From Negaprion brevirostris (taxonomy: Eukaryota): DNA of 64,000 nucleotides. Position numbers and translations under genes: made by a program. Shown piece after piece: positions 33,028-63,990 of the stretch. The number at the start of each line of letters is the position of its first letter. Positions within the stretch are counted from its first letter, which is position 1. Location: assembly GCA_030324005.1 (NCBI GenBank), contig JARDVH010000042.1, positions 42,079,129-42,143,128 on the forward strand, written 5' to 3'. The notes under the pieces are model-generated. The model was not told the origin of the DNA. It did not search any database and saw nothing but the letters and a program-made list of their open reading frames with translations.

Positions 33028-33763
33028 TTCCAATGATGCCACTTTCCAAAATGGCACTACTGATGTGTCTTCCTCCTTCCTCAATCATGATTTTCCACCC
33101 ACTGTGGTTGACAGAGCTCTATACCTTAGTTCAGCCATGTCTGATCCAACTCCCGTGCCACTGCTCTCACCCCCTCCTCCCTCCCAGAACCAGGATAGGG
33201 TCCCCCTTGTCCTCACTTTTCACCCCACCAGCTTCCGCATTCAAAGGATCATCCTCCGCCAACTCCAGCAAGATGCCACTAGCAAAAACATCTTGCCCTC
33301 ACTGTTCGTTCCAAGACACTCTGGTCCACCGCTCCATCACACCCAATAGCTCACCCTTGGCACCTTCCCATGTAATCACAGACGATGCAACACTGGTCCC
33401 TTTACCTCCTTCCTGCTCACCATCCTAGGGCCCAAACACTCCTTTTGGGTGAAGCAGCACTTCACATGCACCTCCTTCAATCTGGTCTATTGCATCCACT
33501 GCTCCCAGTGTGGTCTATTCTATGTTGGAGAGACCAAGCGCAGACTGGGTGACCTTCAGTCCGACAATAAGCAGGACCCAGACCCACCTTGTCACTGGCA
33601 TTTCAACACACCAACCTGCTCTCCTATCCACACACCTATCTTTAGCCTTTTGCAATGTTCCAGTGAAGCCCAGCACAAACTGAAAGAACAGCACCTCATC
33701 TTCTGTTTGAGCACTTTACAGCCTTCTGGACTTAACATTGAGTTCAACAACTTCAGAACATGA
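33028..33763 (+). pseudogene. Penelope-like element linker plus GIY-YIG endonuclease (frameshifted)
   Basis: FPPTVVDRAL..QNQDRVPLVLTFHPTSFRIQRII; FTCTSFNLVYCIHCSQCGLFYVGETKRRLGD..HFN..KLKEQHLIFCLSTLQPSGLNIEF. Confidence 0.93.
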
Positions 33764-34305
33764 ACTCTCCGCCACCTCTACGTTTATGTTATTTTATTTC
33801 ATTTATTTTTATCTTATTCACCCATTTTTATTGCTTTATATTCTTCTTCTTATTTTAAACTTCATTTCTTCCATCAGTTCATTTGTCAACTTCTGAAACC
33901 TTGCTTTCCATCTTGTTCATCCTCCCCCTCCCCCAGCTTACTCGGGCCATCTGCCACATGCCTCAGGTTGTCCTTTGACACTCTATACCTTAGCTCTGCC
34001 CTTTATACATTCCAGTCTCTTAATTGACACTCTTAGCACCATTCTCAGCCTTTATCACAACCACATACGTTCCCTTTGTCTTTTTGTCTATGGCATCTTG
34101 GTCAATCATGCAAATCCCCCATCACCTCACCCTTACATTATGAATCTCATTCTATTTTCTTTGTCTTCAGCTCTGACGAAGAATAATCCAGACTCAAAAT
34201 GTTAGTTCTATTCTCTCTCCACAGATGCTGTGAGTCCTGCTGAAACTTTCCAGCATTTTCTGTTTTTGTTTCAGATTTCAGCATCCACATTATTTTGCTT
34301 TTATC
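33764..34305 (+). mobile_element. Penelope 3' UTR and pseudo-LTR with hammerhead remnant
   Basis: Pyrimidine-rich UTR, then CTGACGA(34173)..GACTC-AAAATGTTAG and TCTCTCCACAGATGCTG..TTTCCAGCATTTTCTGTTTT. Confidence 0.8.
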
Positions 34306-35439
34306 TCAGGGTAAGAGTGTTTGGTATAGCAGGGTTAATCTGGGACTGGAGAACAGTACCACCCACAGTGCGATGTAGAGAGACACATGCCATGAGACAT
34401 GATCAAGAGTTTATGGAGAGAGTCAAGGACAAGTCAATATGGAGTTAGCTCATAGCTTGGGCAATACTCTGAACAAATGTCAATAATTATGTTTCACCAA
34501 TGGACACTATTGTTCAACCTTACAATCTGTTGAGCCTCTTAGTGAGACTTTGTGAACAAATTCTTGCAACAAAAAGTAATGAGGCTCAGTAGGTTGTGTA
34601 TGTGGGCAGGAGATAGGGGAAGGTCAATTGTAGAAGGACACATTTCATTTTCAATCAATTATCCGAGGTAACCAGCCCAACTATTGTGATGTTCCGAGGT
34701 CTTGATCCAATTGCAGCAAAAAAGGAATGTCAGGAGTAGACTGTTTATGTTCTATTTAATATAAAAATTGATCCTCCGATCAACATGGTTCACTCCAAGT
34801 TCTTTCATTCTGGTTCTTCCTGAATTCCATGCGTGCACACTACCATTTGCTGGCCAGTCTGCGGAAAATAATAAGTCATGTGTCTTTCACAAAAGCACAA
34901 CTTCTAATTTCCTTGCAGTGATCATGGTTATATCTGAATACATATTGAAGTCGGTGGTGGTAACAAACTGCATTTATTTTCAGACCCTCTGGAGCATTCT
35001 ATCAAATTATAACCAAGGTAATACAAGAGGAGAATAATAGCTACAATGTGCTAACTCCCATCAGGGGGGCACCTAGTGTATTCAGTTAACAATGTGCCAA
35101 TGTCATTCATATCAATCACTGCTGTGTTCAAAACAATTCAGAATTTTCTTAAACTCATGGTTTGATATTGCACTTACCTCTCAAAATCACTGAAACATTA
35201 CAATGCAAAACAAGCCATTCAGTCTACCAAGTCTGTACTGGTGCTCTTAAAAAGCATTCTATGTATTTCCACTCCCCTGCCTTGTCCCAGTAACCTTGTA
35301 CATTCTTTCCTTTTAATTAGCCATTGATTCTCTTTTGAATACCCTGCCTTCTTCTCAGGAAGTTTGTTCCAGAATCCAACCACTCTCTGGGCAAAAACAA
35401 AATCTCCACGATACTTTCACTTATTTTACCAATTATTTT

Positions 35440-42423: not shown

Positions 42424-42550
42424 GGCTGAAATCTTCTGTCCTTATTCACAGCTGAGATTCTCCAGTGCTGCAGAGGGTGAATGAAGTTTTGGCTGGAACA
42501 CCAGATTTTCTGTTTTTGCTTGCCATGGACAAAACTGGAGATTCCCAACC
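42424..42550. mobile_element. MITE (same broad family as 20227 and 44169)
   Basis: TIR-like GGCTGAAATCTTC / GGAGATTCCCAACC; flanks AAT/AAC. Confidence 0.6.
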
Positions 42551-44017: not shown

Positions 44018-44356
44018 AATAAAAGCAAAGTACTGCGGATGCTGGAAATCTGAAATAAAAACGAAAAATGCTGGGTGATCGCGGCAGGTCTGGCAGCATC
44101 TGCTGAGAGAGAAACACAGTTAACGTTTTGAGTCCTTATGACTCTTGGTCAAATGAGCTTCAAACATTGAGCGCAATCTTACCAACCGTTCATGCCACAC
44201 TCCTGCTGCAGCCCAACCAAATCTCCGTTCACTGCAGCAGGATGGGAATATCCTACCGGTATGAAGGGCTGTAACATTCCAGCCGTTAACTCTGCTTCTC
44301 TCTCCACAGATAATGCCAGACCTGCTGAGTTCATCCAGTATTTTCTGTTTTTATTG
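44018..44356. mobile_element. Inverted pair of Penelope pLTRs (palindromic), interrupted by a MITE
   Basis: Left arm GATGCTGGAAATCTGAAATAAAAAC..GGTCTGGCAGCATCTG..GAGAGAAACACAGTTAACG mirrors right arm GTTAACTCTG..TCTCCACAGAT..CCAGACCTGCTGAG. Confidence 0.85.
44169..44284. mobile_element. MITE inserted in pLTR hammerhead core
   Basis: TIRs GAGCGCAATCTTAC / GTAACATTCCAGCC; flanks ATT/GTT; reverse-complement homolog of 20227-20362. Confidence 0.8.
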
Positions 44357-44889
44357 TGTATAACAAAGTGCCTGTGTGCTACATGCCCCTGTTTCATGCT
44401 GGTGCCATTGAACAATTTCAGCTTAATTTTCAAGAAAAAAAGCCTTCAGGAATCACTTAAAACATTTGCTCCCAGTGGATATTTATCTCATGACAGATTG
44501 AAATACTGTGGTGAACCATCTAAATAATTTATGTTGCCTCCCTTAAATTATTTTCTTCTGATTATTTTTTAAAAAAGCTGCTAAATTTTCTTTATTTCTC
44601 TATCATTATCCATCTACATCAACTGTTTAATTTGATTTGTTTTGCTTCCTAATTGTCTCATCTTTCTCTGTCCCTTGTGCTCCCCTCTTTCTTTTGCTCT
44701 CTCTGTTGCTCTCCCTATCGCTATCTCTTTCTGTCACACTCCCTTGTTGTAAAAGATGCGGTTTGATCTGAGAGTTTATTTGTCTTCACATTAGCCTTTT
44801 GTGGGGCTGTTGGCATCATCCTACTTCTTCTCTGGCTTTCTTCAAGCCTCCCTCAGTCCACTTTCAACATTATCCATCCAGCTGATTTT

Positions 44890-45224
44890 TAGAATCCCTA
44901 TAGTGCAGAAGGAGGCCATTTGGCCCATTGAATCAACACCAACTTTCCGACAGAGTATCCTGTCCAGGCCCTATCCCTGGAACCTCAAGCATATAACACA
45001 CTAATCCCCTAAATTTACACAATTTTGAATACTAAAGGGCAATTTAGCATGTCCAACCCACTGAACCTGAATGTCTTTCGGATTGTGGTAGGAAACCAGA
45101 GCACCCAGAGGAAACCCTTGCAGGGGGATAACTTGCAGACTTTGCTGAGACAGTGAACCAAGCCAGGAATCGAACCTGGGTCCCTGGCACTGTGAAACAG
45201 CAGTGCTAACCATGCTGTCCCATC
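44890..45224 (-). mobile_element. HE1-type SINE
   Basis: TAGAATCCCTATAGTGCAGAAGGAGGCCATT tail to GGAATCGAACCTGGGTCCCTGGCACTGTG head. Confidence 0.9.
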
Positions 45225-45537
45225 CCCTGCTCAGGAATACAGCCACTCAACAGCTTCCTCAGCATTAGCTGCATGCTACAATCATGTAAACGAGCAGGCA
45301 GCACAAATTCTTCATGCTGTCTTCATCGGAAGCAACTGGCATAGGTTAATCACACATCACACTCCTCACATCTGTTTTCAGGTCCTACCAAATTTCGGTG
45401 CCCCCAATTCTTGGCACAAAATGTAATTGTCAGGCGTTTCCATTCCTACTGTGAAGATTGATTTTTCTTAATCTGCTGATAAATTTCCCAACCCACAGTA
45501 AGCTTGTCTTATTTTACGTTTAAGACAAAGAAGTCAT

Positions 45538-45692
45538 GTTGACTGAGTGAGTAGTACTTGCACCTTTGGTCAGAAGGATGCAAATCACAGAAAGTAGCTT
45601 AGCCACTCAGAATAGAGCACATATCTAGGTTGTCATTTCTTTATAGTACTGATGGAACTTTACTGAGGGTGCTGAGCTTTGGATGAGACATC
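45538..45692 (+). mobile_element. DeuSINE-like 5' fragment (old)
   Basis: GTCAGAAGG..GAGCACATATCTAGG..AGTACTGA..GCTTTGGATGAGAC resembles a SacSINE1/AmnSINE head-to-Deu region. Confidence 0.45.
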
Positions 45693-45819
45693 ATAGAGAA
45701 ACACTATTCTGGTTAATATGTTTGGCTGGATAATCAGTGTGGATCAGATTAGTGCCGTTCTGGCTGGGGTAGATTCAGGGCCTGTTTCCTTTTGGAGATT
45801 GTGACACTGGGTCAGACTT

Positions 45820-46690
45820 ACCATGGCAAGCAAACTGAATAAGATACTCTTGGGAGCTTTTAATGTCTATTTTATTTTTTATTTCTTGCTAGTTTTCTCT
45901 CATATTCTAATTTTTCCCTTTTTTTGTTATCCTTTGCAGATGTCTAAAACCTTCCCAATCTTCACAGCATTATCCATCTTTTATTTTAACTTGATACCAC
46001 CCTTAACTTCCTTCTACAGGCATGGATGGTATAACCTTCTAGTACATTCTTTCTCTCTCAGTTAAATTTATCTATTTCAGAGTTATGAAATATCTCCTTA
46101 AATATTTGTCACTGCTTCTCTCCAATCTTTTTTTAACCTATTTGCCCATTCCATGTTAGCCAACTCTGTCTTCATACTTTTGTAATTGCCTGTATTTAAG
46201 TTTGAGCCATTTGGTTATGGACTCACATTTTTCTCTCTCAAAGTGAATGTAAAAATCTTTCATGTTATGATCACTCTTGAGAACCCTTGGCTGTCAGGTT
46301 ATTACTCACCCTGTCTCATTACGCATTACTTTTACCTGGTGTTGTGAGACTTATTACTGTCATTACGTATTACCAGATGCAAAATAGCCTGCCTGTTGTT
46401 GGTTCTAGAACATATTGTTCTCAGAAACAGTCCCAAATACACTCGATGGACTCATCCTCCAGGCTACCTTTGCCAATTTATTATATCCAATTGATGTAAA
46501 GATTAAAGTCACCCACAACCGTTGTAGTACCTTTCTTAAGCTCTCATTATTTCTTGATGTATATTCTATCCTTTGTAATTACCGTTAGAAGGCTAATAAA
46601 GTAGTCTCACCAGGAGCTTCTCTACTATTTCTTAACTCCAGCCAAACTGATTCAACACCTTGAACTTCTGAACTGACATCTTTTCTCAAG
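45820..46690 (-). mobile_element. Old CR1 ORF2 (endonuclease region) fragment
   Basis: Reverse-complement similarity to the CR1 region seen at 19250-20110 (TCTCCTTAAAT, GCCAACTCTG, TTGCCTGTATTTAAG, CATGTTATGATCACTC). Confidence 0.7.
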
Positions 46691-48749
46691 ATTGTACAAT
46701 CCTGTAGTGATTGATTCAGAGCAAGCTCTGAAGGTGAATGCTTGGAAGAAAGGTAATGGAGGAGGGTTTGTAACGGCCGTTACTGAAACCATTTCTTTTC
46801 GCCAACGTCATGAAATGTAATTTGTTTCAAGTTGGCCATTAGAAACAAATATAAAAAAATGTAAAAATTGTGTTTTAATCACAATTAAGACAAACCCATT
46901 TTTGAAAGTCTACATCAGTTTCAGCAATCTTACTCAAAGTGACTTCCAGACATTAAAGTACATATCATTCAGAATCTTTCTATAAATGTTTAAAACCATA
47001 TTTTGGAAGGAATATTTCTGCATTACTGAGGAATGACCATCATTTGCAACTTCAAAGATGATCTATGATAAGGATTAATTATGTGTTCTAAAGAAACTTA
47101 AAGAATGTGCAGCATGCATTAGATTACATACATTCTGGTTTTCTAACTAGTTTACCCATACATAAAGCAAAGCAACACCGAATCGTACATTGATAATGTG
47201 GAAGAATAATATTCAGCAAAATAAATCAATAAGAAAGATAAATATACAACATCAAGTGCAGTGAGAATTATTAATAAAATATAGTGCACTGTTAATTATC
47301 TTGGTGGTTCTACTTGAAGGTTCATAATCTAATCACAAATGGGCTTTTACCATACCTGCACATTTTTGCTACCAGTTTTGGCAGCTTCAAACTGTGAATA
47401 TTACAGAGGACAGAAACAGAGTGAGATGGAGAACTGAAATATTCGATGCTGCTGCTGTAGGGTTGTTTCCTTGGAACAATAAAAAAATAAAGAAGCAAAC
47501 CAAAATAACTCCTGTGGGATTCTATTAGATAGAGACTGGGATTATTTTGGTTCAGCTAACGGCACCATTGAAGTGTAGATCTATCATTACATGAGGGAAA
47601 TCCACCAGTGAAAGACAGGTTCTTTGGGAATTTATCTCAAGTATCTCAGCTGAAGTAGAAATCATGCCTGTTGATATCAGTTTGGTGTCTATCAGTGGAG
47701 TTATAGCAGTAGTAATACTTAATAACACTGTGGCCAGTATATATGTGCAGTGCTGCATACTAACCACCATCAGTTGTAAAAGCTTTTTCTGGCTAATTTT
47801 GTTGTCTATCTATAACTGTGTTTTCACTGTGATGACGCTGATAAATGCCACGGGCTTCCTGACTCACATTGGGGGAGGGGGAAGGGCGGGGTAGTGGGGG
47901 TCTCACGACAGAAATATCGCTCGACATATACAGAACATTATATTTTTTGTTATATTGCTTACATTTTCTCAGATGCAAGTATCCCAGCATGGGTCGTGTG
48001 TGGACTTAACTTTAGTGTTACATGTTTTGCATTGTTTGATTTTACTTTCTCAGCTATAAAAGGGGGATTCAGTAGCAGGAAGTTAATTTGATTTTGTAGA
48101 ATTTTAACCCTACTGTGGACTGTGTATTTTGTTAGATTTTATTAAACCAAGCAAAATTAAATGCAAAGTAGAAAATCTGATGTAAAAGTATTTCATCAGC
48201 ACATTGCATGAGTGACATTAAAGCTTTTTAAATGAAGAACATTTTATTGTGAATTTGAAAAATATGCACACCCTGCTCCTTTTAATGGTACTTTGTGTGG
48301 GTGTCAGCATGTCAAAATCTGTATTCAATATACAAGAGTTATTAACTTTTAATGCCACACCATTTTTCATGTATTATTAGGCCCTATGTGACCGTATTAT
48401 TTTGAAGTCCATGTATAAGTAATTTGTGAGAATGCCTCTTAAGCACTGAACACATTTTCTTAACATTAATAAAATGCATTAATGAAGCTGTGCTCTTGCA
48501 ACAGTTTGTTTTAGAACAGTCACTACTTTTAGTTTGACAAAGTTTTCATACACCTATTCTGGAAATGTTTAAGCTTAGTCATAATTAAATATTTTTACCT
48601 TAGGTGGATAGTATTTGGTGGAGTCATATTTACTTAATAAATATTGGATTAAACTACATTTGAGACTTTGGTAGTTTAGTTTGGGTACTTCCAACATGAC
48701 TGGGCTAGGTGTTATCTTTCCTCTGTGTGAGTGTCTTTCATCCTGTTAA

Positions 48750-49543
48750 AACATCTGGCATCCATCCAATTTTGGGAGATGATGGATGGGAATTTGTCAC
48801 TTCTGGATTGAACATCATTTAATGTGGCTGTGGATGCCAATTCATGAATGGCAGTCCCTTCCACAGCTGGCAAAAATGAATTTGTATTGACTGATTTTTT
48901 TTTCCTTTAAGCAGGATCTTCTTTCCACCATCTGGTTGTTACTTTTGTCCTCTGCTTTTTCCAAGCTCTTTCTGGTTGCTTGTCTCCAGGCACTCCCATT
49001 AGCTGCAAGGATTTCCCAGGCATCAACTCTGATCCCAGGTCTCGCTTGTAGACATCCTTGTACAGCAGACATGGACGACCTATTGGTTTCATACTGTTAA
49101 CAAACTCACCAAAGGGCATAACTTTGGAAATGTGGCCATAATCCACTGGGGAACATAACTCAACCGACAGAGTTGTTGCTGCTTCAAGAGCCCTAATGTG
49201 CTGGAGGTCCCTGCACACTGGTATACTTCATATTTGGCACTTGGTCTTGCCAGGTAATGGCCACTATTCATCTGAAGCAGCAGAGGTGGAATCTGTTCAA
49301 GTTTCTGTGCTCTCCTAAGTTGTCCATGCTTCACTATTGTAACAGAGGTTGCTAAGTATGCATGCTTGGCACATACAGAACTTGGTATTTTCAGTTAGTT
49401 TGCTGTTGGTCCACATTCAAATTCTTAACTCTGACATGACAGCAAAAGCTGCTAATTTTAGCATCAAAGAACAGGTTTCTGATAATTTAAAGTATGTGAA
49501 ACATTGACAACCTCTAGACAGAGGTTGTCGATGTTGGTGGATA
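48750..49543 (-). mobile_element. RTE-clade LINE, 3' half
   Basis: IDNLCLEVVNV, GRPCLLYKDVYKRDL, WEILAANGSAWRQA, CGRDCHS C-terminal Cys/His motif. Confidence 0.85.
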
Positions 49544-49665
49544 GAACATAGAACACTACAGCACAAAAATCCCGTCGGCCCACAAGTTGCGCCGATCATA
49601 TCCATACCTCCCAGGCCATAGAACTATCTATAACTCCCAGTCCCATTAAATCCCATGTACTCATC
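49541..49665 (-). mobile_element. Young CR1 3' end
   Basis: ATAGAACATAGAACA tail plus CCCGTCGGCCCACAAGTTGCGCCGA; ends abruptly at about 49665. Confidence 0.8.
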
Positions 49666-49699
49666 TTGCCGTGAATCTTGTAGATGGTACAAAATTTAA

Positions 49700-49860
49700 T
49701 TTGTGATCTGGGATGTACTGTCTAAATACATAGTGGAAGCAGATTCAGTAATAACTTTCAAAAGGAAAAACATGAAAAGGAGAGGTTTGGAGGACTGTGG
49801 GACTAGCTCTTTCAAAGAGATGACACAATGCACTAAATAACCCCCTTTTGTACTCTTTAA
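49700..49860 (+). mobile_element. Old CR1 3' remnant
   Basis: GTGGAAGCAGATTCAGTAATAACTTTCAAAAGG..TAGCTCTTTCAAAGAG. Confidence 0.65.
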
Positions 49861-50569
49861 TTCGAAATAAACTGAAATGAATATGAAAGCTGGAACTTTA
49901 AATAAGCATAGGATTTAGAATAAGCATGGAAAATGCTAAAAATGCAAAGCATTTGGTTAAAACCTTTTGTTGGGTGGCAGTATTTCAGGCATTGGCATGA
50001 GGTTACATTTCCAATTCAGAGGGACATAGGGAGATAGCACTTCCATTGGTAATAGTTAACGTGGTAATTGTTAAATCTCTGATATTGCAGGTGACAGCTA
50101 TTAGAATTTTCTGTTAATCCTGCATTAGAAAAATACATTGATTTGATTTTAAAAGCCATGCTCTTGATCAAGAAGGTTCTAATTATATTTGTTGTGATTT
50201 AATACTATAAATAGGAGGCTAGTTAATGCAATTTACTTGTGGAGCTGGATTCAAATCAAGCCTTGACTAGTCAGATGGTGGTCTGTACTGGATTAAAGTT
50301 CCTTCATCGGTGCTGCTTCCAAGTGTATTCAACATTGAGGAGTACAGTTGAAGGAGGGCAGTAAGTGCTAATTAGCAGAATTTAGGATGCTTTATCTTTG
50401 CCCATGTTTGACCCAGTGCCACGAGACTTCATGGGCTCTAGGGTCAAGGTTGAGGACTCTCAGAACCATTGCCTCCCAACTGTACATGGGCCCTGTGATG
50501 CTGATGTCAAACAGTGCTTTGGATGACTTGAAATGGAAAAAATACATCTTGATGAGATTTCTGTTTTCT

Positions 50570-50804
50570 AACACAACAATGAAATTGCTGTGAAAATCCC
50601 CTATTCGCCGCACTCCTGCGTTTGTTTGGGTATGCTAAGGAAGAATTTAGCATGGCCAGTGCACCGAATTGGCACGCCTTTCAGATTTTGGGAGGAAACC
50701 CACGCAGACATGGGGAGAATGTGCAGACTCCACACAGTCACCCAATCAAACACGAGTCCCTGGCATTGAGAAGCAGCAGTGCTAATTACTGTGCACCATG
50801 CCAT
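50570..50804 (-). mobile_element. HE1-head SINE, alternative tail
   Basis: AATGAAATTGCTGTGAAAATCCCCTA..CAGACATGGGGAGAATGTGCAGACTCCACACAG..GCAGCAGTGCTAA. Confidence 0.85.
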
Positions 50805-51278
50805 CCTAGATTAGAGGAAGCTTTGTTCTGTTGTTAAACATCTTGTACTTCACATTTGAAATGAGGTTCCCTAATAGACAGTGTTCCATTATCCAGCTCA
50901 TGCACGCACCGTGCACCACTCCCCACTCCTGAACTTGAGAAAAAAAATCATTAGAATGGAAGCTATAATGTAACAAAAATGTTGGTAAGCGATTTATTGT
51001 TTAGTTAGCTATTTATAAAAACAGTTTGAGAATTAATCTTGAAGTTGTGGAAAACATGTTTATTCTGCTGTTGGTGTGTTTGGGCCCTGTTATCCTTTCA
51101 GCTTGAGGCAACTTTCTCCCTAAATTCCACCAACCACTTATCCTATAATCTTTTTAATGCCAGGATACTTAGAAAAAGATGACTTCAAAGAAGCTGGAAA
51201 GGTCTAGACTTCTGCTTGGAAATTTTGACTAAACTTTCTCACTTTTGGCTCCCTTCAAAAAGTATTTTTATTTTGCAG

Positions 51279-51345
51279 CTTTGGAATCAACTCAGACTGA
51301 GCTATTTGATTTGAAAGCAAAGTATGATGAAGAATCAACTGCCAA
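51279..51345 (+). CDS. CUX1: Internal coding exon of CUX1/CASP (cut-like homeobox 1, N-terminal coiled coil)
   Basis: Acceptor TTTTTATTTTGCAG, donor AA|GTAAGT, 67 nt, phase 1 to phase 2; translates (A)LESTQTELFDLKAKYDEESTA(K) versus human CUX1 [23 protein letters not shown] (recalled as a 67-nt exon); closer to CUX1 than to CUX2. Confidence 0.92.
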
Positions 51346-51650
51346 GTAAGTTTCATTAACTGACATGGTATGGTGTGAGCTATGTGTTAAAACCAAAGAA
51401 ATTGGAATTTATTCCTATGCCAACAAGGACAAAAACAGTAGATATTGATCTCCTGTAGCATGGCTCACCATAAGCACTTGATATATCGTATTCAAGGACA
51501 GGGCCCTTATATAATTAATACAGTGCGTGTTACTCTCTTACTAAAATGAANNNNNNNNNNNNNNNNNNNNNNNNNNNNNNNNNNNNNNNNNNNNNNNNNN
51601 NNNNNNNNNNNNNNNNNNNNNNNNNNNNNNNNNNNNNNNNNNNNNNNNNN

Positions 51651-51803
51651 CTAAGAGTCCTACCCTTGATATTGTACTCCTTCATCCCATTGGACCTGCC
51701 AAAATGGACCACTACACATTTATCCGCATTGAAGTCCATCTGCCACTTCTCCGCCCAGTCTAGCATCCTATCTGTGTCACACTGCATGTCTTGCATGTCT
51801 TGC
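51651..51803 (-). mobile_element. Young CR1 RT C-terminal fragment (5'-truncated end)
   Basis: QCDTDRMLDWAEKWQMDFNADKCVVVHFGRSN. Confidence 0.9.
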
Positions 51804-51804
51804 A

Positions 51805-52585
51805 CGGATCTATGTCTTGGTCCATATGTTTGGTTTTCCTGATGTTGATTGTCAGTCCAAACTCTTTGCCAGTTAGGAGAACTAAACTGCACTTGCTGCT
51901 AGTGGACTTCAGTATGGGATGTCAGCGTGGCATTATCAGGAAACAGCAAATTATAAGACTGGGACATTATAAGCTTTGTGCACTACCTTGCCAACTTGCA
52001 CAGCTTACTGTCAGTTTCAGCATGCAAGTAGACACCTTTATTTGAGTTGCCTAAAGTGTAAAATAACGGCATGGAGAGAAATATGCTAAAGAGAACTGGC
52101 ACCAGGATACAACCCTGCGTCACCCTACTGCTGACCTTGAAAGCTTCAGGTGTTGCTCCTTTGTAACTGATGGAACTGCATGTTCTTGTGGAAAGAAGAA
52201 ATGATGCCCAAGGATACAACCTAATTTCCACAGCAAATTAAAGAGCCTGACTTTGCTGATGAGATCGAAGGCCTTGACAAGGTCTATGAAGGTAACATTG
52301 AGTGGTCTGGTCTGTTAGTGAGACTTACCTTGTATCTATTGAAGTAACAAAGTCATGTTGGCTATTTATCTACCAGCTCTGAAGTTACACTGTGACTCAG
52401 GATTGATGTATAATGCTAGGGTCTGCAAATGGTCAATGTAACCTGAGCAAAGACTTTCCCCATGATACTTTGCACAGAGATGCCTTAGTAATTGTTGCAG
52501 TCACTGTGATCTGCTTTATTTTTGTACAAGGTGATTATATTTGCATCATGTCTTGAGGCACAAATATTTCCTTCCAACAGACATA
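51805..52585 (-). mobile_element. RTE-clade LINE, RT region (5' half of the 48750-49543 copy)
   Basis: DCNNY, PESQCNFRAGR, FIDLVKAFDLIS, FKVSSRVTQGCILVPVLFSIF, EFGLTINIRKTK. Confidence 0.88.
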
Positions 52586-53344
52586 CTAAGTTAATGGAGA
52601 TGCTGTCACAGTGCTGATTTTCCAATGTTGGGCGTTTACCACTGGCAACATCGTCAGTGGCCTTGTTGTTCCTAGCTCAGACTGAGGCAAGAGAAATGCT
52701 CCCTGAAGATCTTGACCTTCTATGATATCCCTTCTCCCCCTCCTTCCTCTGTGACTAGCTTGTCCTCTCCTGTGCTGCATTTGCCTTTCATCCTTTGAGC
52801 CAAAGGGGATGGTCATCATCACATTCATGACCGGAGGCAAGTAGTCTGGCTGGAACTCTTGTAGAAGAAACTATGGCTTTTTCTATGTCCAGTATCACTC
52901 CTGTTGACTTCAACTTTAAACAGCAGGAGAAAACTCACCATAATTCTACAAACTCAGAGAGAGACATCTGAAATCAATCAGCAACTAATCTGAAAGTAAT
53001 TGATGATCTCTTTAAATAGCACAAGTGGGGGGAATCCTTCTAGCGTTCAACTGTGTATGTTTAAGAGAAAGTGATATCTAGAGCAATGAGGTCAAAAATG
53101 GCAGCACTGGCATCAAATCAGCTGACTGATGCCATGATCTGCCCACTCCCCTAACTCTCATATAACACCTGCATTAATGCCCGCATCAAAATGACATCCA
53201 GTGTAGATTGTGCCAGGAATGTGCATGGACAGTGCAGACACCATTTTGTTAACAAAGCAGCACTTATTGCTAAAATTACAAACACCATGGATTCAAATTA
53301 GGTGACTACAGTGCTACATTCAGTAGGTGAGGGACTAATGTCAA

Positions 53345-53525
53345 AACAGATTATCTGGTCATTTATCTCATTGCTGTTCATGGAACCTTGCTGTGCACAA
53401 ATTGTCTGCTACGCCTATTTATATTACAACTGGCACTTCAATACAAAGATACCTTGTTGATTCTAAAGTGATTTGAATGTCTCAAGAACATGAAAGTGCA
53501 ATGTTAATGCAAATTCTGTCTTTTC
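53345..53525 (+). mobile_element. DeuSINE (SacSINE1/AmnSINE1-like) Deu domain and 3' tail
   Basis: CAGATTATCTGGTCATTTATCTCATTGCTGTT..CTTGCTGTGCACAAATTG..TGAAAG..AATGCAAATTCT. Confidence 0.75.
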
Positions 53526-54179
53526 ATTTTGTTTGCTCTTGCATATTACAGTAAATTGGCTCACGTATGAAAAGAGTTGAAAGTTGTCACTCAGGACTTC
53601 CACTCTTCTTGCCAGAGAATCTCATAAGCAGTAAGAGGAAGATAAATAGTAATGGGGGAGGGCTCGCACTCATCAATGGAAGAGACCATTATTGACATGA
53701 TTGGAAGAGACACAGCAGTTCAGAGACACAGCAAGGTTATAGGCAATTTCCCTTCCCTTCTTTTCTTTCTGCTGGATTATTTGCACTCAATTATTTCCTG
53801 AAATAACTGAATGATGGCATAGCAAGTTCTTGCCATCTAACTAATCTGAATATTTGCACTTCAACCCTCTTCCTGGAAACATCAGAAGACTTTGCCTTGA
53901 GGATCATACAGACTGATGAGCATCATTATCTGCAATATTCTAGAGGTTTCAACACAAGGTTGGGTACTCACTATACAGCTTGGGTCAATGTACATAGGAC
54001 ACCCGAGAATCAGTAAGATGAACAGAAATGGACGGAAGTTACTGGAGTGATGCAGTTACAGGGAAGTCTGCATGGAAACAGCTACTTTCATACCAAACTA
54101 GATGCTCTCAGAGTCAACAGAATCAAATCTCAGCAGAATGCTCTGCACTGCACCAGTCAATACTGGTTGAAACTCTATG

Positions 54180-54900
54180 ACTGGATATATTCTATTGCTG
54201 AACCTGGGGATGCAGGCGATATCTCTGATATGTCCCATTTGTCACCCACTGCTGAATAAGGGAAGTGACTGATGCTGTTTATGCCAATGGAAGGGAGTGC
54301 GTTGTGTTCATTCTGACCAAACAGAAACAGAGGAACCTGCACATGGTTTTGCCAGAATTGCAGGCATCCTGATGATGTGCTTTGCCATCAACAATCCACA
54401 TGTTGCTTTGGAAACTACATCTATATGCAGAAATGTACCCTAACCGCAAAGGGTTCCATTCCCTGAATGTGCAGTTGGCATGCTCTGACGAGAGGTTATC
54501 CAGACTGGAAACATTGATTCTATTCTCTCTCCACAGATGCTGTCAGACCTGCTGAGATTTTCCAGCATTTGCTGTTTTTGTTGTAGTGTGCAATAGTGCT
54601 CAGCATACACGCAAATAAATACCCAATATTCTGGTAGCAATCACGATACCTTTATAGCCCCATCCACTATTCCCAGAGTGTTTGAACCACTATGTCAAAC
54701 AAGACACTGGCTGTTGGATTTCAGGGGCTATCCATGTAGCTCATGATGCAGATGCACAGCCCTACCCCATGTGGCCAGCATATGTATAATGAGAGCCATG
54801 GAGTCACAACATACATCTTTGGGCTGACCATTGGGGATCTTCACTCTGGAGGAACGCTGCAGTATTAATCTGTCCTGATTCATGGTGTAAGTGCACAATC
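54180..54900 (+). pseudogene. Second Harbinger transposase relic
   Basis: GFARIAG, NRKGFHSLNVQL, YSGSNHDTFI, WLL..GYP, YNESH motifs; split by a pLTR insertion. Confidence 0.85.
54483..54582 (+). mobile_element. Solo Penelope pLTR with hammerhead remnant
   Basis: CTGACGA(54485)..GAAAC..TCTCTCCACAGATGCTGTCAGACCTGCTGAGATTTTCCAGCATT. Confidence 0.85.
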
Positions 54901-55483
54901 TTGTTGTCAGGATGTACAACCCTAGTAACCAGGGAAAATGAATCTCCAGGCCTTTATTTTTTTCTTTTCATGCATTNNNNNNNNNNNNNNNNNNNNNNNN
55001 NNNNNNNNNNNNNNNNNNNNNNNNNNNNNNNNNCACTATGTTTTCCAGGTGTAGCACAAATAACAGCTCGTGATAACTTTAAAATCAATATTAAATGGCT
55101 TGAAAATGATACCATTTAAATATTTTCCATCACTAACACCGAAATTACTCTTCCTTAATACTGCTTCTGTGACTCTTCTCATCGTTTTCAAATGCATGAT
55201 AAAGCACACATGGAGTATATACTGTTACTGTTAATCCGATGGCTAATGCACTGTTCTGAAAAAAATAGTGCACAAAAATGGCAAGGCATAACTCAAAAAC
55301 ATGTATATTGCATACATGTTATCATTAATTTGATGGCTAGTGCAGCATTTTGAAAGAATAGTGCACTAAAATGGTACAGCATTTGTAGGGCTAAGCTGAA
55401 AATAAATAGTATCACATTTTATAGAAATTCATAGAATTGTTTAAAATGACTTATATTTGATGTAGTCCAGTATCACAGGAAGT

Positions 55484-55800
55484 GGGCAGCATGGTGGCAC
55501 AGTGGTTAGCACTGCTTCCTCACAGTGCCAGGGATCTGGCTTTAATTCCCGGCTTGAGTCAGTGTCTGTGTGGTGTCTTCATGTTCTCCCTGTGTCTGCA
55601 TGGGCTTCCTCCGGGTGCTCCAGTTTCCTCCCACAGTCCAAAGATGTGAGGGTTAGGTGAACTGGCCATGTTAAATTGCTCTTTAAGTGTCAGGCAGACT
55701 AGCAGGATAAATATGTGGGGTTACAGGAATAGGGCCTGGTGGGAGGGATTGTGATCAGTGCAGATCTGATGGACTGAATGACCTCTTTTGGTTGGAATTC
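55484..55800 (+). mobile_element. HE1-type SINE
   Basis: GGGCAGCATGGTGGCACAGTGGTTAGCACTGC head, full core and tail. Confidence 0.9.
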
Positions 55801-56484
55801 TCTGAAGTAGCCAACTTGGTACATATTTTACCCACTGTCTCATTCATAGACATGGACAGTTTGATATTAATTCTAAATAGTCAAAGTATTCAGAAGACAG
55901 AAAAAAATGACACAGAACAGCATAAGAGTGTAGTAAAATGAACACAGAACCCTACTTGGTATATTTGACTGAATTAATTAGTTGAAGCTAAATTTACAAT
56001 TGTCTTTGACCCCCATATTGCATGAAGCTGGAAACAATATTTATGTGCCTATATCTTCATCTTCATATGCAATATATTTTGGCTGCATCTAGGATAAATT
56101 CATGTTTTTTTCAAATAAAATTAATGAAATATTTATGCATTTAACTTGTATCAGTTGATAAGTTCTATCAATCAGTGCTGCTTATTTATGCAACAAAGGA
56201 CATTTTAAATATGGTAGTTAAAGCACTGACTTTTATAAACAACATAGATATCCAATGAAAGAAATAATCTAAACAAATAGTTGCTTGATATTGATGGGTT
56301 GGATTTTCCATTGAATTTCTGCCAGATGTTTAATAGGTCTGAATCATTAAAGTGAATAAAAGGAGACAATAATACTGACTGCGTCTGGTCCATCGCTAAG
56401 CGGATGGCACCTGAGATTGATCTCTCTAAAAAAAATACTGATGCCCGTTCAGCCTCATCAAAATGGCAAAAGTGAACATGAGGT

Positions 56485-57653
56485 GGAGATGCCGGCATTG
56501 GACTTGGGTGGGTACAATAAGAAATCTCACAGCACCAGATTAAAGTCCAACAACTTATTTGGAATCACGAGCTTTCGGAGCACTGCCCCTTAATCGGTTG
56601 ATGAAGGAGCAGTGCTCGGAAAGCTCATGGCTGCAATTCTCCAAAAGTGCTGAATTGGCAGGAAAACTGTTCTAAATCTCGACTGTTTTGTCAGTTCAGC
56701 TTCTCACCTGAATCTCCGAACTCTGTGCACTACGGCGGTTCCCGTCATGGCTATCATTAAAAACTCAGGTGGGCTGAGGCCCATTCATGCCGGAGTTTGA
56801 CAGGTGTGGAATTTTGTGCATGTGCAGTGGTCCCGATTTGTCAGACTCCCTGTTTGCTGGCCCCCACAGCCTTTCCCGAGCCAACCTTGACACCACCCCC
56901 ATTCCAGAGNNNNNNNNNNNNNNNNNNNNNNNNNNNNNNNNNNNNNNNNNNNNNNNNNNNNNNNNNNNNNNNNNNNNNNNNNNNNNNNNNNNNNNNNNNN
57001 NNNNNNNNNNNNNNNNNNNNNNNNNNNNNNNNAGCCCCCCTCCCCGCTTCTCCCCAGCAGACTGCTAGCCTGTCCCAATCGCTGTCCTCCCTCTATCCCA
57101 CACTGATCCTGTCTGCAGAGCGGAACAGGCCCACCCAACCAATTGTCCCAAGGCTCCACCCACAATAGGGCCAAGGTGCCCCCGGGCATAGGCATTTTGT
57201 CCCTTGGGCAGTGCAAGGAGGCACAGGCTGGCAATACCAGGGTGCCCCCGATTTCCCCTCCATTCCGGCAGGGTCTCCAGCTAGTTCCCCGTACGTGGAG
57301 AGCTAGTCTAAACCCTGCCAGAATGAAGTACTCCTGACGGGGAGGGAGACTCAATCAGGACCCTAAGTTCCCAATAATCACATTTAAAACATATTTAAAA
57401 TACATTTTTAAAAAATTCAAATAACTTACCTGTCTTCCTGCCAGTTTCCAGCATGGTCTGACTGGCGACTATTGACCGGCTGTGGGAGATGTGCATACAT
57501 TCCTCGAGCATGGGCAAATCCCGGACCAAGGCTGGCAACGTGCATCCCCCACTGCGACCCTCCAGAACACTTTTCTGGCGGGTTGCAATGGGAGAGTTGC
57601 GGCCCATGATTCTAAATAAACCTGTTGGACTTTAACCTGGTGTTGTGAGACTT
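56485..57653. mobile_element. Second Penelope-type pLTR family, inverted pair, interrupted by a DNA transposon
   Basis: TCTCACAGCACCAGATTAAAGTCCAAC..TATTTGGAATCACGAGCTTTC mirrors GAAAGCTCATG..ATTCTAAATAAACCTGTTGGACTTTAACCTGGTGTTGTGAGA. Confidence 0.75.
56629..57605. mobile_element. Non-autonomous Harbinger-type element
   Basis: TIRs GGCTGCAATTCTCC / GGAGAGTTGCGGCC(C); CATG on both junctions (TSD CAT or ATG). Confidence 0.8.
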
Positions 57654-58902
57654 TATAAAAGTGAATTTGGCATATTTCTCCAGTCCAACTTTCAGGACAT
57701 CAACCCAGGTCTTAATTATTATAGGAGGTAATATGAACAGCAGAGTCTTATCTCTAAAGTGGGGTGGCAATCATGTTTTCTGGAGCTGAAGATTTTTCTT
57801 ACTTTATCGACCTATTGATGTTCGCTGTGTAATGTGTCGAAGATTCTGTGAAGACTGAGGCTGGTCTGTTTGGTAAACTATGTAGTCAGTACAGTTGGGG
57901 ACTGTGGAAAGGACTTTTCCAAAGGAAATCTTTTCAGGTTTATGTTTTGAGGGAGAAGGGGAGGGCACATTGGAAAAGATATGATTAAAGACAATAGAAA
58001 GTGAATTCTCATAGATGATGCAGAAGTAGAAGGTCAAGCTTTGATTTCTCTGCAGCTTCAGAAGGCTGTGATTCCACTTCCCACTCCCACTCTTGAGGTT
58101 ATTGAGGAAAAATGTCGACTGCTATCTAGGAAAAAGCATCACTTTTAACAGATAAAGCCTCTATTGCCTTCAATTTCTTTATGAATAGATCCTGCCAGAT
58201 AGCATTTGGTCACTCGCCAAATTGGGCAGACAGCAATTTGTCATTGCATTCAATTGTTTTCTCCAGGTGAACCATGCACTTTGGATGGGATTACCAGTGC
58301 CAATGGGGTCTTGTCTGCCAATTACAGAGCTGACTATAGCCCTATGTCGCCTCTTTCCAGGAAGGCATATCATTGCCACCCATCACCCTCCCACCCGATA
58401 AAATGTCTCCCTCCACCTATGTCATCACACAGGATGGTATTGAATTTTGTCCTTCAATTTCTTTGCAATGGCCTTAATATTATGGGGCACCCTGGCCATT
58501 ACCCATACCATTCCCCTCATTACGTGCTTCTCCCCGCTCATTGGCTAAAAGTTGGAAAGAGCCTGCCTACAATCATAAATGGCTGTCCTGTAGCAATGTA
58601 ACACTGAGAACAGCATTAAATGTTTTAAGTCAAGGCTGTCCCTATCTTGGAGGATATATTACCTTAGCAAGACGGTTGGATGGCTGACAGATCTGTAGTC
58701 CCAGCAGTACGTCCGACTGTACTGCCAGATGGGTACAGTTGCCCACTGCTGGCAATATAAGCAGTTCCATTTCTTGCAAAGTAGAGAAGAGGTGGGGTGC
58801 AAGCAATATCACCCCCACCTCCTCCATAAAATCCAGCCCCTTGCCTGGAGCCCCTCATTTGGAGGTACTGGAGGAAGTCTTTAGCTAACAGGCTTATGGT
58901 CT

Positions 58903-59000
58903 TTCTCTGGATGGACATCAACATCTGTGAGCAATTCTTGCAATGCACAGGTGCAAAGAGGTGCTACTGATCATTGTCATTACACACCAAATAATCTCTT
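58903..59000 (+). repeat. 98-bp segment duplicated at 62573-62670
   Basis: Ungapped alignment, 8 mismatches by my count. Confidence 0.9.
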
Positions 59001-59309
59001 AGCTGCATTGCTAGCTGTGTGCAAATGTGGTAATTAGGTTGACCCTTAAGTTATATATTGAAGCAGTAGGTACCAAGCTACAGTCATCTTATGAAGCTTC
59101 TTGTCTTTAAAACACAAGTCAATTCCCTTCAGCCCTAATTCCAACACTTCCATGAACTTATCAGAGAACCTAAAGCCTTCCCTGCTGCTAAGCCCATCAC
59201 ATTCTCTTCCCTCTGAGGCAACTTCACACGTTTTATACTTTGCTTATGCTGTTCAGAATAACTTTCCAATTTGAAGGGGGAAGCGATTCAAATTCAACCT
59301 ATTGAGCTT

Positions 59310-60685
59310 ATAACAAAGACAAAGTTGGAAAAGCAAAGGAGGTCAGGCAGTATCTGTGGAGAGAAAAACAGAGTTAATGGGCTCGATTTTATCATTGCAT
59401 GAAAACATGGTAAATTTGGGTGTCAGGCCATTAACACGCTCCACACCTGTGTCTGCATTGATTGCCACTTTATCAAAACCCAAGAATGGCAGCGATCTGC
59501 TTTGCGCCTAAAACAGGCACAGCGGCAATTTAAATGCATTTATATGCAATTTAAATGCATTTATATGCATTTAAATTGAATTAATGATCTGCCTGCCCAA
59601 CTTTACCAGCATTTCCTCCTTTACCGTTGTGTTTGCCAATCTGGAACCGCACCTTAATGGACCTGTTAACCAGAAGTCTGAATCGGGCGCTCCAGCTGCT
59701 GAAGAATGTGTTCAGTGCTTCCAATGGCTCTCTGACTCAGATCAGTGGTGGGGGGAAGGCGGGAGGTGGGTCAGATCATTCTCTGGTTGTGGGTAGGGAG
59801 GAGGAGGAGGAGGCAGGTCAGATGTATCTCTGGTGGTGGGGGTGGGGGGNNNNNNNNNNNNNNNNNNNNNNNNNNNNNNNNNNNNNNNNNNNNNNNNNNN
59901 NNNNNNNNNNNNNNNNNNNNNNNNNNNNNNNNNNNNNNNNNNNNNNNNNNNNNNNNNNNNNNNNNNNNNNNNNNNNNNNNNNNNNNNNNNNNNNNNNNNN
60001 NNNNNNNNNNNNNNNNNNNNNNNNNNNNNNNNNNNNNNNNNNNNNNNNNNNNNNNNNNNNNNNNNNNNNNNNNNNNNNNNNNNNNNNNNNNNNNNNNNNN
60101 NNNNNNAGGTAAGATGTATCTCTGGTTGGGGGGAGGCCTGATCACTCACTGGGGCGGCTGGGGGGTCAGATGGATCTCTGGTGGGGGGGGGCAGATAGAT
60201 CTCTGGTGGAACATGGAGGGGGCAGGGGGGTCCGCTGCCACTCTGCAGGCAATCGATGGAGGGGGAGGAGGACAGGAGCGGTGATTGGTCTGGGTAGCAG
60301 GGTGGGTGGATAAGGGGGACAGTGGTGTATGTGTAATGATGGGAGGTGTATAAGGGGGACAGTGATGTGTGTGTGCACAATCACTCCCGCTTTTTGCTCC
60401 CGGGCCACTTCCTCCACTTTTTGCTGCCCAGGAGCGATCTGACATGGGCACGTTTTTTCAAATATTTTTCCAACTGTGCATGTGCAGTTCAGATCATTTT
60501 GGGTGCCCTAAGCCTTGCCCGCAGCGTGAATGGGACCTGCGATTTTTTTTCAGGCAAAGTGCGTTTGGGGGCGCCTGAAAGCAGATTTCCAAGTCGGATC
60601 TGAATTATGCCCAGATTCAGCACTTAGAATGAAGATGGTAAAATCGGGCTCAGTATCTTGAGTCTGTGTGACTCTTCTTCAAATT
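59310..60685 (-). mobile_element. Penelope pLTR split by a DNA transposon
   Basis: GGTCAGGCAGTATCTGTGGAGAGAAAAACAGAGTTAAT [insert] AGTATCTTGAGTCTGTGTGACTCTTCTTCA. Confidence 0.75.
59379..60651. mobile_element. Non-autonomous Harbinger-type element (spans an N gap)
   Basis: TIRs GGGCTCGATTTTATCAT / ATGGTAAAATCGGGCTC; flanks AAT/AGT; internal 21-bp tandem repeat GCAATTTAAATGCATTTATAT. Confidence 0.8.
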
Positions 60686-62299
60686 ATATCTTGGTAAAAT
60701 GGCTAAGAAACTCAGGAAAAAAATATATTAGCAGTTGGAGAAGGATATAGTTCATGGCATCACTGGAAGCGAAAGGAAGGGAAAAACTGAACTGAAAATG
60801 ATTCAATGTGTGGATAGAGTAGTGATAGCTTGATACTTGCAGTTTGTAACCACGTTACAGCAGGAAGATTTTTTCATTGTCACTCAAGAGATGGTAAGTG
60901 GTGTAAATTATCATAATTTAACAGATGTTTGACTAAACCAATAAGAAGATCTGCAATAACCTCCAGTGACCCTTGACAAAAGTTACAGGCTGAACCTGAA
61001 CAAGATAAATTGCATTCCAATGAAAAAAAAAGCGCAATTGTATATAGATGTTTTGATCTTAATGAGCTTTGGTCTTTCCAAGTAAAACTTGTGAACTCCA
61101 CTGCATGTGACAAATGCTGATGATAGCCAAAGTATCAGGGAAAATTATTATTGTCATCTCCAGCCTAGTTAAATTAATCCAGTGAGCAATTAAAATATAA
61201 ATACTGATTCTGGAAAAGTAGTGGTCTCCATCATGCTTTCCTTCTTGTGGGCCTTACACTTTGTCATGTTAAAACTGGATTATTGAATTTAGCGGAGAAT
61301 AACTATAAAAAATTAACCGTATCGTGTTCACATGGTAAGTGAGCTCATATCAGTAAACCAGCAAGTTGTAATGTCCATTTTAACCTTACCGTTAATTACA
61401 TTTCCCCCGTGTATGCAATGAATTGCCCCAACTGGATTTGAAATAAATCCCTGTGCTAACTGTTTTATTTGCTCCTGTTTCAAGGGGTTATCATTAAAAT
61501 TCAAACATGGTGGGAATTTTTATAAAATAATTGAACAGAAAATGCAGGAGACTTAGAATGGGCAATCTGGTACAGAGAAACACATGATATTTAATTATGT
61601 TCTAATGATCAAAAACCATGAAATGATTTAGTTAGAGACCTTTGGCTGCGGTTTGCAACTTTGCATAAATCATGGTTTCTGGACAGACACTTGAAAATTA
61701 CATTGAATAATGAATAAGAAATATTACATTGGTAGCGTACATAGTTGCCAAAAGACCAGCATTGTGGTTTGGGAAAAGTTGGAATTAAAGGTAGAATATT
61801 CAGCATTCTTTGAAGCTCAATTCTTTGTAACTTAATTATTTTCTGCTGCAGGTTAGATTTTGACAAACAGAAATTCATGGTTTAAATCTGCAACAGCCCA
61901 CCATGAAATTCACTGAGAAAATATGTCCCCAGTTTAGTAGTATCCTACTTTGTAAATTGCAACTATGACAGAATTTGGAATACACAAATATTGGAAACAG
62001 GAATAGACTATTCAGTCCCTTGAATATGCTCTGCTATCCTGACTTGTCAATACCACAGCTCCATTTTCCTACCTTTGCTTCACATTCTTCAAAATCCTTA
62101 ATCAACAAAANNNNNNNNNNNNNNNNNNNNNNNNNNNNNNNNNNNNNNNNNNNNNNNNNNNNNNNNNNNNNNNNNNNNNNNNNNNNNNNNNNNNNNNNNN
62201 NNNNNNNNNNCTTGAATATGCTCTGCTATCCTGACTTGTCACTACCCCAGCTCCAGTTTCCTACCATTGCTTCACAGTCTTCAAAATCCTTACTCAACA

Positions 62300-63990
62300 A
62301 AAAGGGAAAATGCTTGTAAGACTCGGTTGCCCTGGCAGCATCTGTGGAGAGAGGAGCATAGTAGATGATCTGAATCTTCACTCCCATGCCAGGAATGAAG
62401 AGTTAGGATAATAGTTCAGATGGGAGATTTGTAGGAGTAGTGGGGGACAATACCACAAACAGTGCCGAGGCAGGCTGGGTGGAAGGCCTGCCTCAATTCA
62501 CTGGCACTTTATTGAAGCAATGAAAAATAGGAAAGCAAAGAACAGCCCTCCTACCCTCACCCATTATTGTTGTTCTCTGGATGGAAATCAACATCTGTGA
62601 GCAATCCTTGCAATGCACTGGTTCAAAGAGGAGCTACTGATCATTGTCATTACAGACCGAATAGTCTCTTCCATGCTTCAACCCACCACACATTCTCCAT
62701 GTTATACCATGGTGCCTCATGTCCCCCACCCACCCCCTGGCCTTTCACTGCCAATCTGTGCCCTTCTACCCATTGCCCATGGTTCATCGCATTGTTCGTA
62801 CCTACCTACGCTCCTCAGCCCATCCATGTGGTCCTTTATATGCCCTATGCCAATTTATTGCCAATTTATGCCAAACCATGCAGCTCCATCAACCCCATTT
62901 GTCCTTATATCTATGGTGCTAGCTGACCCATTATTTACCAGGGGTAGACCTCAGAACCCATGCTGAGATTAAACAAAGTTCTTAAATATCCCATTGATGA
63001 ATCCACTATTTCAAAAAAATCTACCCTCATTGATAAAAATCAATTAATTACATTTAACTTCCTTTAGTCCCTTCTAAAACAAGTCTTGGAATTCATAGTC
63101 CCACTTTAAAGAGTTTATAATGTCAGGTGAATTGACAGTCATGTAGCATTAATTTTGTAACATAAACCTCAACTATGTCAACAGGGCGAAATAGCAGGCA
63201 CAAATTTTTTTTAATACTGCAACTTTTTCAAATATTTAAATGGCAAGAGTTTCAAATGCCTTGACACCTTGACAGCTCCCTTTGAAAGTTCTGTTGACAG
63301 TTCTTTTTGACTGCTCTCTTGACAGTTCCAATGAGCTTGACAGTTCTCGTGAGTTAATGCACTTCTTCTGCACATTCATGTTTATGCTTAATAATCCCAC
63401 AGCACATGCTACCTCTCCCAAATGGAATCTGACCTCTCTCAAAGGTGTCCTAGGGCCATATCCAAAAGGATATCTTGCCTCTCCAAAGAACTCCAGCAGG
63501 TTTAGACCTTCTCCTACCAGGTCTGAAGTGCCCAAGTCATGTTTCTGACACCCCACTAATGAAAATCAAATCAGCCTGAGGTAGCTGCACTTTAACATTT
63601 GCAGTTGCTTCCATGATCCATGTGTAACTCAGAACCCCCATTCCCCTCTATGTGAGAGTGGGTAGGTACCATGTTTGGAATTGGGACTTCTGGGTCCAAA
63701 CATTTGCAACAATTTTCACAAAGACAGAGAGGTGCTTCAACAAAAATTCAGGTCAACGTTTCAGCTCAATGATGTGCTAATGAAAGGTTAACTCCATGAG
63801 TGGAATCTTATTGCTCGGCCAGTCAGTGAGATTTTCCACTCCCACTGAAGTCAATTGTGTTCACCACATTTGAACAATTCACCACATTTTATGGCCCTGG
63901 CTCTTCCAGTGCCTCTCTCCACAGATGCTGCCTGACCTGCTAAGTATTTCTGTTTCTATTTCAGAGTTACCTCATCCACAGTATTGTAAA
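62300..63990. mobile_element. Penelope inverted pLTR pair split by DNA transposon(s)
   Basis: CTGGCAGCATCTGTGGAGAGAG at 62332, resumes AACGTTTCAG at 63755; opposite arm CTCTCTCCACAGATGCTGCCTGACCTGCT at about 63913. Confidence 0.7.
62367..63754. mobile_element. Non-autonomous Harbinger-type element
   Basis: TIRs GATCTGAATCTT / AAAATTCAGGTC; flanks GAT/AAC. Confidence 0.65.

Follow-up and report, generated by a model that had tools for sequence, protein, structure and literature searches.

Harbinger-type transposons inserted repeatedly at one position of an abundant Penelope-type repeat in Negaprion brevirostris: most likely a by-product of an ordinary target preference

Classical PIF/Harbinger DNA transposons duplicate TAA/TTA when they insert. 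The PHIS elements have been grouped into PIF/Harbinger, Pangu (ANT), NuwaI (CWG, with terminal inverted repeats (TIRs) starting GGG) and NuwaII (PMC4482050), and the zebrafish element Harbinger3_DR has the target AAACACCWGGTCTTT (PMC3016246). Target-specific DNA transposons include Dada, which is strict and makes 6-7-bp duplications, and Pokey, which is partially specific (PMC3706591). Harbinger went undetected in the elephant shark, and a check of other cartilaginous fish has been called for (PMC9179366). The present analysis concerns a stretch of 64,000 nucleotides from the shark Negaprion brevirostris (contig JARDVH010000042.1, positions 42,079,129 to 42,143,128; hereafter the window), in which three Harbinger-type elements interrupt a Penelope-type pseudo-long terminal repeat (pLTR), called family A, at one position inside a predicted hammerhead ribozyme. 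An earlier reading of this DNA (the original prediction) saw in these insertions a transposase favouring a sequence, or the cruciform formed by inverted pLTRs, that coincides with the ribozyme core, to the advantage of the transposon and the detriment of Penelope self-cleavage. Unrelated non-autonomous Harbinger-type elements very probably sit at this one abundant pLTR position through a match to the general extended target of the transposase.

In the window, the family A pLTR is interrupted at the identical position by the elements at 44169-44284, 59379-60651 and 62367-63754, and the junctions read exactly as first described, with flanking 3-nt copies AAC/AAT, AAT/AGT and GAT/AAC respectively. 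Each insert is bounded by a diverged 3-bp duplication and has short imperfect TIRs that follow GG[GC]Y-N-GRATTYT; the interiors are unrelated, as had been claimed, with no BLAST match among the three at E<=0.01. When their empty sites were rebuilt, the junction ranked 1st, 1st and 2nd among 97 nearby positions by the target-profile score described below. The hammerhead cores interrupted in the window are degenerate. Assembly gaps lie inside the inserts at 56629 and 59379, so that their lengths are approximate. A MITE-like fragment (MITE, miniature inverted-repeat transposable element), which had been placed at about 63797, starts at 63798 and does show one TIR-like end; neither a far TIR nor a duplication was located for it. 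Inside the 1.39-kb insert, a 107-bp stretch (62564-62670) recurs 3.7 kb upstream (58894-59000) with 90% identity and without a further match among the loci compared; it is possibly captured local DNA.

Assignment of the inserts to the Harbinger type, as originally proposed, is upheld by TIRs, 3-bp duplications and, for the element at 59379-60651 and the one in locus L044, transposase homology; for the other window inserts the assignment is by TIR and duplication. At its left end, 59379-60651 matches by BLAST, at 68-84%, three loci found through DDE_Tnp_4 (L297, L298 and L299), of which L297 holds a DDE_Tnp_4 transposase (E 2e-23) and ends in a similar TIR at its position 3671. The features of PIF/Harbinger (PHIS) are found in the short TIRs starting G/A and in the 3-bp duplication, with perfect copies at 17 paired sites and diverged ones in the window. 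A Myb/SANT second open reading frame did not emerge from Pfam, which had no match in two downstream frames of L297, a broken copy; no search aimed at such a frame was made. The genome holds 5,248 DDE_Tnp_4 candidates; all 150 that were scored exceeded the cut-off, and several keep a reading frame of 350-680 aa open. This genome is rich in Harbinger-type transposase sequences, whereas none were reported for the elephant shark (PMC9179366). The common 116-127-bp MITEs (L033, L035, L057, L058, L060 and others) carry a second, internal TIR-like end 48-50 bp from one terminus, which forms a small inverted repeat within the element. Duplications of TTAA (piggyBac/Kolobok-type) or TAA were rejected since the right flanks do not fit them, and a strict ANT duplication arising through CpG decay was rejected by discordant AAC/AAT copies in five of 13 two-ended loci and by the free triplet elsewhere. 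The discordant copies suggest that insertion took place while the CpG was intact. The triplet reads AAT somewhat more often at filled sites (72 of 79) than at empty ones (77 of the first 100 listed, by eye).

Genome-wide, an anchor inside the family A repeat was searched together with a TIR pattern 0-16 nt away (17 offsets), which gave 434 matches against seven for a reversed control pattern. The triplet offset holds 59 of the first 100 matches listed, about 54 of the 59 being pLTR-like by eye, so that the mapping of junctions onto the pLTR did return a single-position peak. The hotspot is real, genome-wide and far beyond chance. The exact 15-nt left context runs into a TIR-like start at 275 sites and continues as empty repeat at 1,350; allowing for decay, about 1 in 10 near-consensus copies of this context is estimated to be filled. 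Minor peaks were seen at +6 (about 5-6 of the first 100 matches listed, by eye), at +2 (3 of 100) and at +39, where 22 of 73 listed matches fall, about 18 of them pLTR-like by eye; about 10 of the 73 are pLTR variants that mimic a TIR and were left uncounted. Pattern searches also return false ends, from stretches of the family A pLTR around +35 and of a common short interspersed element (SINE) that look like the Harbinger TIR. The distribution is not of the Dada type, with nearly all copies in one target: three clear and one doubtful of 113 ends in a random sample lie at the pLTR junction, as do about two of the 100 ends listed for a single TIR variant, so that about 97% of element ends lie away from it and about 3% there.

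Several of the inserts belong to one 127-bp MITE family, as would be expected if the pLTR flanks were fixed parts of a few composite elements spreading as units. This explanation is nonetheless extremely improbable. In a survey of 30 of the 79 exact filled junctions, the 13 loci with a recognisable far end within 1.5 kb have inserts of 116-648 bp, mostly without mutual similarity; one family occurs in both orientations (L044 versus 59379 in the window), the same insert families are also found outside pLTRs, and beyond the site the flanks are not alike, several pLTR subtypes being represented. The flanks are therefore independent targets, as the original prediction had supposed.

A target profile was derived from 166 ends (60 TIR-selected and 106 from the random sample), of which 153 entered the matrix after removal of six flagged pLTR ends, four internal repeats and three SINE mimics. 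Insertion sites outside the repeat are palindromic, approximately ARANAY-NNN-RTNTYT, with A at -9 (48% of TIR-selected and 48% of random ends), a purine at -8, A at -7 (73% and 60%), A at -5 (65% and 47%) and C/T at -4 (80% and 78%), counted from the TIR. The duplicated triplet is nearly free, with 45 types among the 153 ends and AAT as the commonest (11). The family A repeat reads CGAAAC-GTT-AACTCT and matches four of five informative profile positions on each side; the invariant GAAAC of the hammerhead core makes up its left half, and helix I plus downstream bases its right half. The matrix, from which pLTR sites had been removed, puts the triplet first in the repeat and in the top 0.01-0.05% of genomic positions, which bears out the proposal that a preferred extended target coincides with the ribozyme core. 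Predicted enrichment at the triplet is 81-155x raw and 217-530x when sharpened for decay; on real aged empty copies it is 63x raw or 201x sharpened, compared with 10-18x at +6 and +39. The minor sites predicted on real copies are -5, +39, +6, +27 and +2, and peaks were seen at +6, +2 and +39; a target logo from non-pLTR insertions predicts the main peak and also the minor ones at +6 and +39. A simple RAC-NNN-GTY rule was rejected, since a perfect site of this kind at +6 is used about tenfold less, and the extended profile explains why.

By leave-one-site-out, six of 16 paired sites (one of the 16 being a pLTR site, in a lower bin) score at least 5.5 against 0.19% of background, a 194x enrichment (confidence interval (CI) 71-422); for filled pLTR sites close to the consensus the score is about 7.4. 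A calibration on fully held-out sites was set aside, as it had only seven, one of them mis-paired and one the window family B site. Where sites have only RAAACRTT in common, a pLTR is present in 14 of 30 filled sites (the first 30 of 560, called by eye) versus 6 of 130 in the background, an odds ratio of 18 (CI about 6-54, by hand), and 7-16x is expected from the second half-site by a hand sum from the matrix. Sequence alone accounts for the position and the size of the peak within about 2-3-fold. The SINE, used as a control, received one insertion among 297 ends, which is consistent with its weaker best site and too few for a test. At locus L203 a MITE has inserted into the common SINE, at one of the better target positions predicted for it, and by eye two or three other flanks resemble SINE sites.

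A fourth element had been placed at 56629-57605 in a different pLTR family. It does lie in a different family (family B), but its end is at 57604, giving a perfect CAT/CAT duplication, and this site is not a recurrent hotspot. With a matching pattern the family B site is filled at seven places genome-wide, window copy included; the offset of the window insert had 0 of 62 matches with a pattern that would not have matched that insert's own TIR. The insertion is a one-off outside the recurrent hotspot, at a site that scores 66x in the target profile. Family B pLTRs are abundant and frequently form short back-to-back inverted pairs (56540-57660 in the window; L140, L106 and L105). Attraction of the transposase to cruciforms of inverted pLTR pairs, as put forward originally, has next to no likelihood, although such pairs hold the family B site and two of the three family A sites in the window: an inverted partner lies within 300 bp of 6 of 27 filled versus 7 of 36 empty sites (p=1; the count for empty sites takes in a possible eighth partner behind another insert), and family B is often inverted yet rarely filled. 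The MITE at 42424 had been credited with a similar context outside any pLTR, but the likeness is limited to AAY-GT and its site ranks 36-42 of 97 nearby positions in the target profile.

Family A has 43 profile matches in 680 kb of non-N DNA, sampled every 10 Mb along eight contigs; scaled up to the whole genome, this gives a copy number on the order of 100,000. It is assigned to the Penelope-like elements because an empty arm lies behind a GIY-YIG-like endonuclease frame (33350-34310). In translation, the frame at 33350-33760, seen at this one locus only, carries the motif VYCIHCSQCGLFYVGET and is read as a GIY-YIG-like endonuclease with an upstream cysteine motif. The frame scores 0.93-0.96 in Atlas to eukaryotic clusters, one of which has GIY-YIG in 10% of its members; Pfam gave no match for the GIY-YIG-like frame near 33350. 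The endonuclease end of this remnant (33000-34310, plus strand) is almost open, and a SINE insertion occupies about 32690-33000. No Penelope domain was found by Pfam in 36 frames lying upstream of pLTR arms, and a weak RVT_1 match near L018 is not assigned to family A.

The hammerhead was analysed in 53 empty family A copies matching the core pattern. Their layout runs from CUGANGA through a single additional base and helix II (5 bp) to GAAAC, followed by the GTT triplet and helix I (4 bp). Helix II pairs are kept in 31-42 and helix I pairs in 30-43 of the 53 copies, with T-A/C-G covariation at one helix I pair (shuffle p=0.006) and none at the other pairs. GAAACGTT is intact in only nine of the 53, all of which have a recognisable core; its loss in the others is mostly due to CpG decay. 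An Rfam scan of the window gave no match at E<=1, which leaves pattern and covariation as the basis of the hammerhead call. When two empty copies were folded freely (z -0.5 and -1.4), the hammerhead fold did not appear, as expected of a motif reported to need a dimer, and the folding was not used as evidence. The duplicated 3 nt coincide with the predicted cleavage triplet G16.2-U16.1-U17 of a minimal hammerhead. The target is indeed in the hammerhead core, although the AAC after the triplet forms helix I and not stem III as first stated. The upstream copy of the duplication keeps core and triplet together, so that insertion would replace only the 3' strand of helix I. Loss of predicted Penelope self-cleavage by insertion is of doubtful weight, the targets being dispersed truncated end-fragments of which 9 of 53 keep GAAACGTT.

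The single-base precision on the predicted cleavage triplet, and the filling of about one in ten near-consensus copies, would suit an evolved relationship in which one transposable element targets another, with a transposase adapted to the Penelope hammerhead, which would serve as a safe harbour and lose its self-cleavage. This part of the original prediction is very unlikely to hold: about 97% of ends lie elsewhere, a pLTR-free profile predicts the peak, a published zebrafish element shows the same pattern of half-sites (PMC3016246), the pLTR fits the consensus at only 8 of 10 informative positions, and the cores are decayed in most targets. Nor is a general preference for hammerheads supported, since the other hammerhead family, B, has no hotspot. 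It is also quite improbable that the transposases recognise something specific to Penelope hammerhead DNA beyond the consensus and that some insertions keep a ribozyme cutting at the transposon edge. Such insertions would keep a cutting ribozyme because the duplication is the exact cleavage triplet and its upstream copy retains the whole catalytic core; a TIR beginning GGCT would rebuild helix I as in natural variants. If true, one transposon would be borrowing the ribozyme of another.

Several points weigh against a purely sequence-based account. The matrix comes from 153 aged ends and the calibration from 16 sites, so a residual 2-3-fold extra preference is possible; the ratio of the main to the +39 peak is about 13-20:1 against 6-11:1 predicted; and the absolute enrichment of near-consensus copies is estimated at several hundred-fold, the upper end of the predicted 80-530x. 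pLTR calls were made by eye for filled sites and by profile overlap for the background, which may inflate the odds ratio of 18. Additionally, the family B site scores well yet is rarely filled, for which sequence alone does not account unless most B copies are younger or poorer in their right flank. A modest extra determinant or an age effect may contribute. More broadly, sequence could set the position while a further feature raises site use 2-3-fold or more, such as palindrome shape (AACGTT, GTTAAC), longer-range contacts, CpG/methylation or open chromatin at young Penelope copies. The main peak exceeding that at +39 by more than predicted, and an odds ratio at or above the top of the predicted range, speak for such a feature, which we consider unlikely because every excess is within small-sample confidence limits and a matrix that treats positions independently and is built on decayed flanks should under-predict its best sites.

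The preferred explanation, a match to the general extended target, would work as follows. The transposase would recognise the 15-bp DNA site itself, as has been reported for Harbinger3_DR of zebrafish; retrotransposition of the Penelope type would have scattered copies of the site, on the order of 100,000, and this very high copy number could turn a weak general preference into a visible single-position peak. Overlap with the ribozyme would then be a coincidence of sequence, and the insertions would be independent later events in mostly dead end-fragments. The hotspot is most likely a by-product of ordinary Harbinger target preference and would point to a new mechanism only if a residual preference held up across the full genome. 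The features of the window are collected in Table 1.

Table 1. Family A and family B pLTR features and Harbinger-type inserts in the window
Position	Strand	Feature	Evidence
33350..34310	+	Longer remnant of family A parent: GIY-YIG-like endonuclease end, 3' region, empty pLTR arm at 34163-34310	Translation, Atlas, profile
42424..42550	.	127-bp MITE, AAT/AAC duplication, outside any pLTR, poor target context	Junctions, target score
44013..44153	-	Empty family A pLTR arm, inverted partner of the arm interrupted at 44169	nhmmer family A profile, E 1e-35; inverted repeat I24
44166..44168	+	Left 3-nt duplication copy ATT; predicted hammerhead triplet after CpG decay	Junction reading
44169..44284	.	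116-bp MITE, Harbinger-type TIRs	Junctions; 4 partial matches in other loci
44285..44359	+	Right-hand GTT copy of the duplication, with the 3' portion of the interrupted pLTR arm	Junction reading, profile match
56629..57604	.	~0.98-kb Harbinger-type element with assembly gap, CAT/CAT duplication, inside inverted pLTR family B pair	Isolated event
59340..59378	-	3' part of interrupted pLTR A arm, ends in duplication copy AAT	Junction reading, profile match
59379..60651	.	~1.27-kb non-autonomous Harbinger element with assembly gap	BLAST to L297/L298/L299 at 68-84%
60652..60685	-	Duplicated triplet (AGT on +), with helix II and the degenerate hammerhead core of the arm interrupted at 59379	Junction reading
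62294..62366	-	3' part of interrupted, diverged pLTR A arm	Profile match
62367..63754	.	~1.39-kb element, diverged Harbinger-like TIRs; family from TIR only	Junctions; one short match elsewhere in loci
63755..63794	.	Duplication copy AAC, inverted pLTR pair junction, partner arm start	
63798..63912	+	MITE-like fragment in partner arm, one TIR-like end; right boundary approximate	TIR score 10

A search of titles and abstract openings, with Repbase and subscription papers outside its reach, found no description of Harbinger insertions in Penelope hammerheads, and the nesting hotspot is apparently undescribed in print. A weak general target preference combined with a very high-copy repeat can mimic deliberate targeting of one transposable element by another, which calls for caution with claims of that kind. 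With its thousands of copies, some filled and some empty, a single site offers a natural reporter for target choice and for dating both families. Additionally, a Harbinger-type target profile is now available for this lineage, which resembles the zebrafish one, has a free central triplet and fits poorly with PHIS grouping by duplication sequence.

Compared with the minimal hammerheads of Penelope-like elements (PMC4209133, PMC8557442), the family A motif shares CUGANGA, the extra base before helix II, the basal G-C of helix II, the palindromic 15.2/16.2 and the 4-bp helix I, and, as in metazoan Penelope-like elements, the copies are dispersed, single or inverted, with a GIY-YIG-like endonuclease upstream. 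It differs in that DNA transposon insertions in the motif go unmentioned in the relevant passages of these papers, and in that the hammerhead here is known from sequence. The inserts resemble the PHIS groups (PMC4482050) in their short TIRs starting GG, the 3-bp duplication and the DDE_Tnp_4 domain of related copies, but they have no fixed triplet, even within one TIR variant, so that a PHIS group cannot be assigned by duplication sequence. As in Harbinger3_DR (PMC3016246), a 3-bp duplication lies in a 15-bp near-palindromic target, and both half-sites of AAACACCWGGTCTTT fit ARANAY; the central triplet here is nearly free, as opposed to CWG, and the preference looser. With Dada and Pokey (PMC3706591) the hotspot shares repeated insertion at one position of a multicopy sequence and, as with Pokey, the elements also insert elsewhere; unlike those systems, the target here is a dead retroelement fragment that receives about 3% of insertions, and a general consensus explains it.

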